Assembly: GCA_964636545.1 (NCBI GenBank)
Contig: CAZWSR010000004.1
Span: forward strand, 1-64,000
Origin: Candidatus Undinarchaeota archaeon
Lineage (GTDB): Archaea; Undinarchaeota; Undinarchaeia; Undinarchaeales; UBA543
DNA: 64,000 nucleotides
Direction: 5' to 3'
The notes under the pieces were generated by a model. The model was not told the origin of the DNA. It made no database searches and was given only the letters and a program-made list of their open reading frames with translations. Shown in pieces: positions 288 through 34,429 of the stretch. Position 1 is the stretch's first letter. Each line of letters starts with the position of its first letter. A program made the translations under genes and the position numbers.

Positions 288-566
288 GAGTGACACAGCA
301 GTCTTCAATGGACTAACCAGAAAAATGTTGCTTAACCTTGCTCAAGAGCTCCACACCACGATCTGCAAGCATCAAAAATTCCTGTTAATGGCTGCTTCCT
401 TCCGGATCTGACCAGGTTCGCAGGAACATCGATCCCACAGGGCAATGCTTCGACGCCCAAGTGCAAGACAACATCCCGCTGGCAAGCCTCTCAAAGTGTT
501 CAGCTCCGCCATAAAGCCCATTTGCGGTAACAAGGTAGGGCTAATTCCCCAGCCTAGCTGTGCCGC
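288..566 (-). ncRNA. ffs: Archaeal SRP RNA (7S)
   Basis: Minus strand has the helix-8 motif GAACCTGGTCAGATCCGGAAGGAAGCAGCC; ends GGCACAGC/GCTGTGTC pair; about 280 nt. Confidence 0.93.
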
Positions 567-28585: not shown

Positions 28586-28753
28586 CAAGAGTTCCACTTA
28601 ACCATTGGTTACAACTTCCACCTAAATATTTAGAGGACTTGTTTTTGCTTGGTGGTTTGGGTTTCATCTTAAACTAAATTGTCAAAACTAGGTTATTTTA
28701 GTTACACTGTGATATCACAGGGGTTTAAAAGCAAATTAAAAATAATAGAAAAG

Positions 28754-28878
28754 TGCCGACGGCGTGGATTGAACACACGACCTCCAGATTTCTTAGCGCC
28801 GAATAAGTCATTTCCCGCAAGGGGATCAGCACTCATAACGCATATGAGTCTGGCGCTCTACCGCTGAGCTACGTCGGC
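28754..28878 (-). tRNA. Elongator tRNA-Met(CAT) with 53-nt intron (28790-28842) at 37/38
   Basis: CCAGA-CTCATA[intron]A-TCTGG; BHB with one C.A mismatch in the central helix. Confidence 0.92.
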
Positions 28879-28994
28879 ATTGATTTGGAGGAACTCAGCA
28901 GGAGTTTTGGATTAGTTTTGCTGTTTATAACTTTTATTGATAGGAATATTCGCAAAAGCATAAATTAATAACCACTAAATCAGTATTCGATTTA

Positions 28995-31469: not shown

Positions 31470-31572
31470 TGGTCCCCTCTCCGAGATTTGAACTTGGAAC
31501 CTTCCGGTTTCTATACAAGCAATTGCTTGCATCGTTCTACAGCCGGACACTCTACCGTTGAGCTAAGAGGGG
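31470..31572 (-). tRNA. tRNA-Tyr(GTA) with 28-nt intron (31509-31536), CCA encoded
   Basis: C1-G72; TCCGG-CTGTAG[intron]A-CCGGA; BHB helix CTGT/ATAG. Confidence 0.94.
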
Positions 31573-34311: not shown

Positions 34312-34429
34312 GTCTGACGGCCATAGCGGAGGGGTTCCACCCGATCCCATTCCGAACTCGGCAGTTAAGCTCTCCAGCGATTTGTTGATTACTGCGTTTT
34401 GACGTGGGAAAAACAAGACGCTGTCAGGC
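34312..34429 (+). rRNA. rrf: 5S rRNA
   Basis: GGCCATAGC...CCCGATCCCATTCCGAACTCGG.AGTTAAG; terminal helix CTGACGGC/GCTGTCAG. Confidence 0.95.

Follow-up and report, generated by a model that had tools for sequence, protein, structure and literature searches.

Can the intron of an archaeal tRNA gene guide the methylation of the very tRNA that it interrupts, and can it do so with one half of the usual RNA structure? This question is raised by the elongator tRNA-Met(CAU) gene of a Candidatus Undinarchaeota archaeon, located on the minus strand of a 64,000-nucleotide stretch of DNA (assembly GCA_964636545.1, contig CAZWSR010000004.1, positions 1 to 64,000; hereafter, the window). A preliminary description of the window, made from its letters alone, proposed that the tRNA-Met intron is a minimal guide of the box C/D type directed at the wobble cytidine, C34. 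Combining the anatomy of the intron with genomic comparisons across the archaea, this report concludes that the intron is probably a cis-encoded box C/D-type guide with a single kink-turn (K-turn), i.e. a 'half-mer', for the methylation of C34 in its own elongator tRNA-Met. The conclusion is based on the anatomy of the intron, its conservation, the covariation of its hairpin, the fixed register of its guide, the restriction of the module to Met as opposed to Ile2-like tRNAs, the presence of similar modules in the Trp and Leu-CAA introns, and three protein genes. Protein binding, methylation, the order of events, action in cis or in trans and the sufficiency of one K-turn are what we infer from these.

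Anatomy of the tRNA-Met intron

The tRNA-Met gene occupies positions 28754-28878, has one intron and matches the Rfam tRNA model with 57.5 bits; its cloverleaf was parsed by hand, and the exon/intron borders follow from that parse. All of its parts lie on the minus strand. The 5' exon (28843-28878; 36 nt) carries tRNA positions 1-37 and ends with the loop word CUCAUA, within which C34, the wobble cytidine and predicted methylation target, is found by counting at 28846. The intron (28790-28842; 53 nt), which has the sequence UGCGUUAUGAGUGCUGAUCCCCUUGCGGGAAAUGACUUAUUCGGCGCUAAGAA, interrupts the tRNA at the canonical 37/38 site, as judged from the sequence, the Rfam match and the fold. The 3' exon (28754-28789; 36 nt) supplies positions 38-73, according to the sequence and the Rfam match. 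The only other CAU tRNA of the genome is the initiator, with A1 and three G-C pairs in its anticodon stem (C1:135492-135567). No tRNA-Ile2(CAU) was found in the assembly, which is 83% complete, and a tRNA-Ile(UAU) is present. Because the other CAU tRNA is the initiator and AUA is served by tRNA-Ile(UAU), the gene in the window encodes the elongator. In this organism, a UAU anticodon may read AUA in place of a CAU that carries agmatidine.

Read from its 5' end, the intron begins with a linker, UGCG (28839-28842), the GCG of which pairs in the predicted folds with CGC in the tail to make the inner helix of the splice motif. The guide, UUAUGAGU (28831-28838), is conserved in relatives and is the exact complement of A31-A38 in the spliced tRNA and of A31-A37 in the precursor. 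A single spacer nucleotide, G (28830), separates it from the first box, CUGA (28826-28829), which is D'-like and forms the non-bulged strand of the K-turn. Next comes a hairpin (28813-28825) in which UCCC and GGGA enclose the loop CUUGC and which, based on folds and covariation, is the canonical (C) stem of the K-turn. The second box, AAUGA (28808-28812), is C'-like and provides the 3-nt bulge AAU and then the GA of the tandem G-A pairs. The tail (28790-28807) contains ACUUAU, which is able to pair with the guide, and contributes CGC to the inner helix and UAAG to the central helix of the splice motif; its AA makes up the 3' bulge together with A38. The guide thus sits, as do tRNA-Trp-type guides, within the 37/38 intron of its own target tRNA, and CUGA, hairpin and AAUGA correspond to the internal D'/C' motif of an archaeal box C/D sRNA (small RNA).

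The elements named in the preliminary description (guide, spacer, CUGA, hairpin and AAUGA) are therefore all in place on the minus strand. Its central proposal, that the fifth nucleotide upstream of CUGA pairs with the wobble base, also stands, since G 28834 lies opposite C34 (28846), in keeping with the fifth-guide-nucleotide rule directly upstream of a D' box. The K-turn geometry that it described, i.e. CUGA, the UCCC/loop/GGGA hairpin, AAU and GA, is likewise borne out; the stem covaries and the structure recurs in relatives. At the level of sequence, then, the predicted K-turn has a covarying stem, a 3-nt bulge and GA on both strands. Two other arrangements were considered and rejected. 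A second K-turn, made from the ends of the intron or from AUGAGU together with a CUGA-like word near the 3' end, was set aside, since the ends are unconserved and the shortest relatives are too short. A K-turn of reverse polarity, with the hairpin as the non-canonical stem, needs GA right after the hairpin, which is absent from the intron itself as well as from the AAUGA and UAUGA forms.

Conservation of the module across the archaea

A DNA search of 61 related genomes recovered the gene and its intron within the same genus, the same order and beyond. The introns of these relatives share the guide, one spacer base, an xUGA box, a hairpin of variable sequence and a second box of the form (A/G/U)(A/G)UGA. 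Of the 17 genomes from the organism's own phylum, 14 yielded the gene; 12 of these have the module, one (G014) is intronless and one (G015) has an intron without the module. A broader scan covered one genome per prokaryote species with a pattern made of the 5' exon, the guide and xUGA, and gave at least 120 matches. Those listed are mostly from Micrarchaeota, according to record labels, with others from Aenigmatarchaeota, Woesearchaeota/Nanoarchaeota, Nanohaloarchaea, Hadarchaeota, Marsarchaeota and Methanosarcinales, and all of the genes among them have Met-like acceptor stems. Since neither the hairpin nor the second box was part of the search pattern, the two provide an independent test. 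Directly after the first box, 94 of the 114 unique introns among the matches listed have a stem of 3 bp or more with a 3-nt bulge and GA, as opposed to 11% of shuffled tails. The third base of the bulge is U in 91 of those 94, while only 2.8% of shuffled tails form the structure with U. The remaining 20 of the 114 have 2-bp stems or the kink-loop (K-loop) form, CUGA, about 7 nt, GAUGA; Hadarchaeota-type relatives have the classical K-loop, CUGA-7 nt-GAUGA.

A sample unbiased with regard to introns was drawn with a 5' exon pattern only from 401 archaeal genomes, yielding 128 genes in 121 genomes, all of which were parsed; the other 280 genomes had no match to the exon pattern and lie outside the counts. 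The Met-like set comprises 111 genes from 110 genomes in 49 families. Its 24 intronless genes include the only representatives of eight families, and its other 87 genes have introns. The module is present in 47 of these, and another four have it with a deviant first box (ACGA, GCGA or AGGA), so that 51 of the 87 intron-bearing genes, in 51 genomes and 22 of the 49 families, carry it; six of the 47 calls and all four variant calls were assigned by hand, the script having mis-scored K-loops and mismatched stems, and related genomes in these counts are not independent observations. Two genes were uncertain and 34 have an intron without the module (19 families for the two classes together). C34 is always at position five. 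In other words, the conserved spacing of guide and CUGA for which the preliminary description called was found, both in the 12 of 14 own-phylum genomes with the gene and in the 51 of 87 genes from the unbiased sample. The same sample contains 17 Ile2-like CAU genes, which have the GGGCC acceptor characteristic of tRNA-Ile, as seen in the organism's own. Seven of them have introns and none of the seven has the module, the anticodon loop being identical.

Register, spacing and covariation

The register was also left free, from 1 to 12, for all K-turn candidates with at least five guide pairs. It was 5 in every candidate apart from cases of overlapping UGA words, in which the neighbouring word gave 5, and from one genome (G296), which had a register of 6 and was scored as uncertain. 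Among 138 unique cores, the spacer is always a single base (G in 86, U in 34, A in 18 and C in none), the first letter of box 1 is A in 87, C in 34, U in 15 and G in two, and the nucleotide after box 2 is U or C in 130. In most introns of the Micrarchaeota type, a perfect box C consensus, GUGAUGA, arises from the end of the guide, a spacer G and AUGA as the first box. Other spacings drift, with 4-131 nt for the 5' linker, 7-40 nt for the hairpin and 4-60 nt for the tail; the shortest introns of relatives measure 37 nt in total.

In an alignment of 72 cores, the columns without variation are those for UGAGU in the guide and for UGA in the two boxes. Of the hairpin, the four pairs beside the K-turn are paired in 99.6% of cells, and cells with changes on both strands number 87 vs 18.3 in shuffles, with none of 500 shuffles reaching as high; a row could enter the alignment only with a stem of 2 bp or more, a bias from which just pairs 3 and 4 and the shuffled-tail test are free. 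The pairing collapses once the partner column slides by one.

Modules in other tRNA introns of the same genome

Introns interrupt seven tRNA genes in this genome, three of which, for Met, Trp and Leu-CAA, carry the module. The latter two lie outside the window. In the tRNA-Trp gene (L265; contig 5, 26761-26893, plus strand), the intron reads UGGAGC, one base, UUGA, hairpin and AAUGA, and the guide pairs with G31-A36. In the tRNA-Leu(CAA) gene (L266; contig 13, 1034-1163, minus strand), it reads CUUGAGU, one base, CUGA, hairpin and GAUGA, and the guide pairs with A31-G37. In both, C34 faces the fifth base, counted upstream from the first box. Relatives retain both modules, and their Leu genes include a compensatory change, in which A31 is accompanied by a guide that ends in U and G31 by one that ends in C. 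No module is present in the Tyr, Ile-UAU, Arg-UCU and Ala-CGC introns of the genome. The three tRNAs that do have one are three of the four for which box C/D guides of the wobble base are described in Pyrococcus, in the passages of Breuer 2021 (PMC7994747) devoted to them. The organism's own Trp intron does not have the full C/D set known from Euryarchaeota and exists in the one-K-turn form.

Protein machinery and chance expectation

The preliminary description made the presence of fibrillarin and Nop5 a test of its proposal. Both are encoded, as is L7Ae, with scores of 270, 152 and 101 bits for L7Ae, Nop5 and fibrillarin, respectively. The genes for Nop5 and fibrillarin form a pair, and all three are intact open frames without stops. 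Fibrillarin was detected in 398 of the 401 sampled genomes, and none of the module-bearing genomes lacks it.

On its own, the local motif is unremarkable, since its counts match those of shuffled sequence; what makes it significant is that it is conserved and that it lies in the target's own intron. Across the 0.84 Mb of the genome, there are 22 copies of the guide-plus-box word RTGAGYNNTGA vs 17-25 in shuffles, and 126 of the bare K-turn pattern vs 116-136. A copy of the Met guide acting in trans was also sought among the 22 words, and a hairpin and second box follow the intron copy only. With the K-turn census at chance level and no strict match to the canonical two-motif sRNA (see below), pattern searches alone cannot find further guides in this genome.

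Exclusive folds of the precursor

The minimum-energy fold of the precursor (-44.7 kcal/mol) has a z-score of -1.76, with 9 of 200 shuffles folding as well; z-scores are modest overall (-1.76 and -1.88). This fold is a relaxed bulge-helix-bulge, the splice motif of archaeal pre-tRNA, with the bulges UAU and AAA, the inner helix GCG/CGC and a central 4-bp helix made of C32-G, U33-A, C34xA and A35-U, i.e. with one C-A mismatch. Relatives that have UGAG form all four pairs of the central helix. The 3' word in relatives is variable (CUGAG, CUGGG, CGAG or GUGGG), as expected for the strand of a splice motif that pairs with CUCA. When the seven pairs between guide and anticodon arm are forced in cis, the predicted energy is -44.3 kcal/mol vs -44.7 for the splice-competent fold. 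Because these energies are nearly equal, the guide and splice folds, which are mutually exclusive, would be equally accessible.

A model for guide action, and what it would mean

Based on these features, L7Ae would bind the K-turn formed in the precursor by CUGA, hairpin and AAUGA, and Nop5-fibrillarin would join next. The guide UUAUGAGU would pair with A31-A37 of the anticodon arm, whether in the same molecule, in another precursor or in a spliced tRNA. C34 would in this way come to face the nucleotide in fifth position upstream of the first box, and there fibrillarin would methylate its 2'-OH. The RNA would then refold into the bulge-helix-bulge, using the same loop nucleotides, and splicing would follow. 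As to how one K-turn could suffice, the likeliest way would be for two half-mers to be bridged by a Nop5 dimer.

A wider proposition, advanced here tentatively and as somewhat less than an even prospect, is that many DPANN, Hadarchaeota and other archaea keep a natural half-mer C/D module in the introns of the tRNAs that are modified (Met, Trp and Leu-CAA in this genome), so that guide and target form one transcript, methylation and splicing are coupled via exclusive folds, and the active particle probably consists of two precursors on one Nop5 dimer. If this is true, RNA-guided methylation would have in the module a minimal and possibly ancestral form, and the persistence of these tRNA introns in reduced genomes would have a functional reason. 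The guide reading itself, if right, would provide a selective reason for the retention of these introns in very small genomes, predict 2'-O-methylcytidine at position 34 (Cm34) in uncultured lineages and offer a natural test of whether one K-turn suffices for the archaeal fibrillarin particle, a long-standing mechanistic question.

Weighing the guide reading and its rivals

A number of observations count against a guide function. The first group concerns architecture. RUGAUGA is missing 5' of the guide, and CUAA stands in place of CUGA at the 3' end; a terminal C/D K-turn is therefore absent, as the preliminary description had cautioned. The bipartite symmetric design, with two guides of about 12 nt and two K-turn motifs, is absent too, the intron having one K-turn and one guide, and there is neither the full C, D', C', D set nor the second guide for position 39 that characterize the tRNA-Trp type. 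Full activity of reconstituted archaeal ribonucleoproteins (RNPs) generally depends on a symmetric pair of motifs. With only 7-9 bp, the guide duplex falls short of the 10-12 bp usual for box C/D guides. Box 1 is more often AUGA than CUGA (87 vs 34 of 138 cores), box 2 does not have the second half of the C-box consensus, and the pair after the tandem G-A is C-U here, not U-U. In line with another caveat of the preliminary description, part of the guide pairs with the tail in the minimum-energy fold. The second group concerns the genomic evidence. The strict pattern of a canonical two-motif C/D sRNA has no match in the organism's own genome (0-1 in shuffles), so that there is no in-genome example of the normal RNA of the RNP. 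The presence of fibrillarin discriminates little, being nearly universal (398 of 401), and the module is not obligatory, since 34 intron-bearing Met-like genes are without it. The preselection of alignment rows and the calls assigned by hand, both noted above, belong here as well. Having a single K-turn and no terminal C/D pair, the intron would be a natural 'half-mer' guide; on the best-supported reading of its sequence, it is not a standard bipartite C/D sRNA and would work like one half of one. The intron-encoded minimal guide of the preliminary description is, in this form, supported by comparison and is likewise the best-supported reading.

The same features could be read in other ways. 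It is possible, if improbable, that the K-turn is an L7Ae-binding structural element without a role in methylation, which helps the precursor to fold, aids or times splicing or stabilizes an excised circular intron, the complementarity being an anticodon-intron helix only. The K-turn and the complementary stretch are indeed the sole conserved parts, there is no second K-turn, the exclusive conformers of equal energy might be a folding switch, and L7Ae binds the K-turns of several non-guide RNAs. A purely structural role, however, leaves unexplained why the exact C/D register, with C34 at five, is held in three tRNAs and 22 families while other spacings drift, why the module is restricted to tRNAs with a wobble base known or predicted to be C/D-guided elsewhere (Met, Trp and Leu-CAA), and why it is absent from Ile2-like CAU introns with the same loop (0 of 7); moreover, many archaeal introns are spliced without such an element, including those of Tyr and Ile-UAU in this genome. 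It is also rather unlikely that the chemistry of the RNP is the same and the excised, probably circular, intron acts only in trans, on spliced tRNA-Met and possibly on the initiator, which has the same loop sequence. In this organism, the eighth pair (U 28838 with A38) forms only in the spliced tRNA, passages of the literature describe the tRNA-Trp intron guide as trans-acting, and the tRNA-Met intron of H. salinarum is circularised, according to a passage of PMC12558985. In most relatives, however, the first intron base is A, giving eight pairs already in the precursor; a guide acting in trans has no need to remain, over 22 families, within the intron of its target; in energy, the cis fold is within reach; and the two modes are not mutually exclusive.

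Coincidence, i.e. an ordinary intron hairpin with UGA words and some complementarity to the anticodon loop, as in many tRNA introns, is hardly credible. The absence of genome-wide enrichment (22 vs 17-25 for the word and 126 vs 116-136 for the K-turn pattern) and the modest fold z-scores agree with it, and it is contradicted by the comparative data: the module is kept over 22 families with a fixed register, its hairpin covaries, box 2 follows in 94 of 114 introns among the matches listed vs 11% of shuffles, and matching modules occur in three of the seven introns of one genome. There is, finally, a very slim chance that the module guides a different modification of C34, such as acetylation, or merely blocks C34 until splicing. 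Some eukaryotic C/D small nucleolar RNAs (snoRNAs) guide the acetylation of rRNA. The register, on the other hand, fits the fibrillarin rule, and Cm34 is a documented modification of archaeal and human elongator tRNA-Met, in the relevant passages of PMC4033218 and PMC6601510. Considering all of these, a cis-encoded guide for C34 methylation remains the probable function of the intron.

Annotation and genomic surroundings

Standard tRNA finders miss or mis-assign this tRNA-Met gene, which is relevant to annotation. ARAGORN did not detect it without intron mode; in intron mode, the program called Ser(cga) with a shifted intron, a call that was rejected, the hand parse and the Rfam match being preferred. 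An Rfam search of 28700-28930 at E values up to 10 returned the tRNA and two chance matches only, and no described RNA family spans the intron. Approximately 1 kb downstream of the tRNA-Met gene lies tRNA-Thr(UGU), and the pair is adjacent in relatives as well. The window also contains an archaeal signal recognition particle RNA (292-564, minus strand), a 5S rRNA (34313-34429, plus strand) and ten tRNA genes. One of these, tRNA-Tyr(GUA) (31473-31572, minus strand), has a short canonical intron without a K-turn module and served as a negative control within the window. Elsewhere in the genome, the tRNA-Ile(UAU) gene on contig 13 (7463-7577, minus strand) is also intron-bearing.

Two further features of tRNA genes were noted. 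Long inserts of about 100-170 nt are present in the introns of the Arg-UCU gene (contig 1, 98420-98634) and the Ala-CGC gene (contig 12, 11815-12018), and likewise in relatives' genes for Met (L010), Trp (L270 and L272) and Leu (L301). A similar hairpin (CGGCC...GGCCGGCG, or CGAAC...GUUCG) opens the insert of Arg-UCU and those of the relatives' Met, Trp and Leu genes, and G+C-rich repeats occur inside. The inserts in the relatives' Met and Trp genes lie upstream of an intact guide module; the Leu intron of G005 (L301) has no module. The long insert may be a mobile element that targets tRNA introns. Additionally, the tRNA-Met genes of some relatives (L008 from G004, L223/L224, L229 and L200-L202) apparently have a second interruption in the T arm, as no normal T stem-loop follows in the 3' exon.

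Comparison with known systems

In structure, the nearest counterparts are synthetic. Half-mer box C/D RNAs, which have one K-turn and one guide and two copies of which can be bridged by a Nop5 dimer, are used in reconstitution and crystallography. To our knowledge, the sufficiency of one K-turn has so far been studied only with them. Unlike those laboratory constructs, the module described here would, if the guide reading holds, be natural, conserved and embedded in a precursor tRNA. In target, the counterpart is the haloarchaeal guide sR-tMet, which is reportedly the product of a separate, trans-acting gene and has terminal C/D boxes, whereas the guide here lies inside the intron of its target. 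The target is the same in both, i.e. Cm34 of elongator tRNA-Met; in haloarchaea it is made by a box C/D RNP with sR-tMet as the trans guide, as outlined in Hori 2014 (PMC4033218), and here it would likewise be made by L7Ae-Nop5-fibrillarin. Passages of Breuer 2021 (PMC7994747) list Pyrococcus guides for the wobble bases of the tRNAs for Leu (anticodons CAA and UAA), Met and Trp. In humans, Cm34 of elongator tRNA-Met is guided by the box C/D RNA SNORD97/SCARNA97, going by the parts of Vitali and Kiss 2019 (PMC6601510) that describe it. Unlike the intron guide, the human RNAs are trans-acting, full-length snoRNAs of a eukaryote; that they guide Cm34 shows that both the modification and its guided mode are ancient.

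In its setting, the module resembles the guide in the euryarchaeal tRNA-Trp intron, which passages of two reviews (PMC4090602, PMC6313347) treat as the sole instance of a tRNA intron encoding a guide for its own tRNA and which the former, in 2014, called a 'unique example'. According to the sections on it in those reviews and in PMC7994747, that guide too lies within the intron of the modified tRNA, addresses C34 by the fifth-nucleotide rule and has exclusive guide and splice conformers. It differs in being a complete C, D', C', D RNA with two guides, for C34 and U39, while here there is one K-turn and one guide. A literature search for tRNA-Met intron guides, with most subscription journals outside its coverage, found only Randau 2012 (Genome Biol 13:R63, PMC3491384). 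The passages concerned propose that the intron RNA of the Nanoarchaeum equitans elongator tRNA-Met, a stable species that is abundant in RNA-Seq, is a C/D box sRNA; its 66 nt include a box D that matches the consensus, a box C that deviates at one place and a stable hairpin of six G-C pairs. By that description, the two cases are alike in being elongator tRNA-Met introns of DPANN archaea with C/D-like boxes and a hairpin, and they differ in length (66 nt vs 53 nt here) and in that the passages on N. equitans name no target or register. The N. equitans intron RNA would appear to be the closest published precedent, with an architecture that, judged from its description, may be shared. Three results emerge from the present data: a putative guide in the tRNA-Met intron is widespread (22 of the 49 families sampled), it has the C/D register for C34, and it recurs in this genome's tRNA-Trp and tRNA-Leu(CAA) introns.

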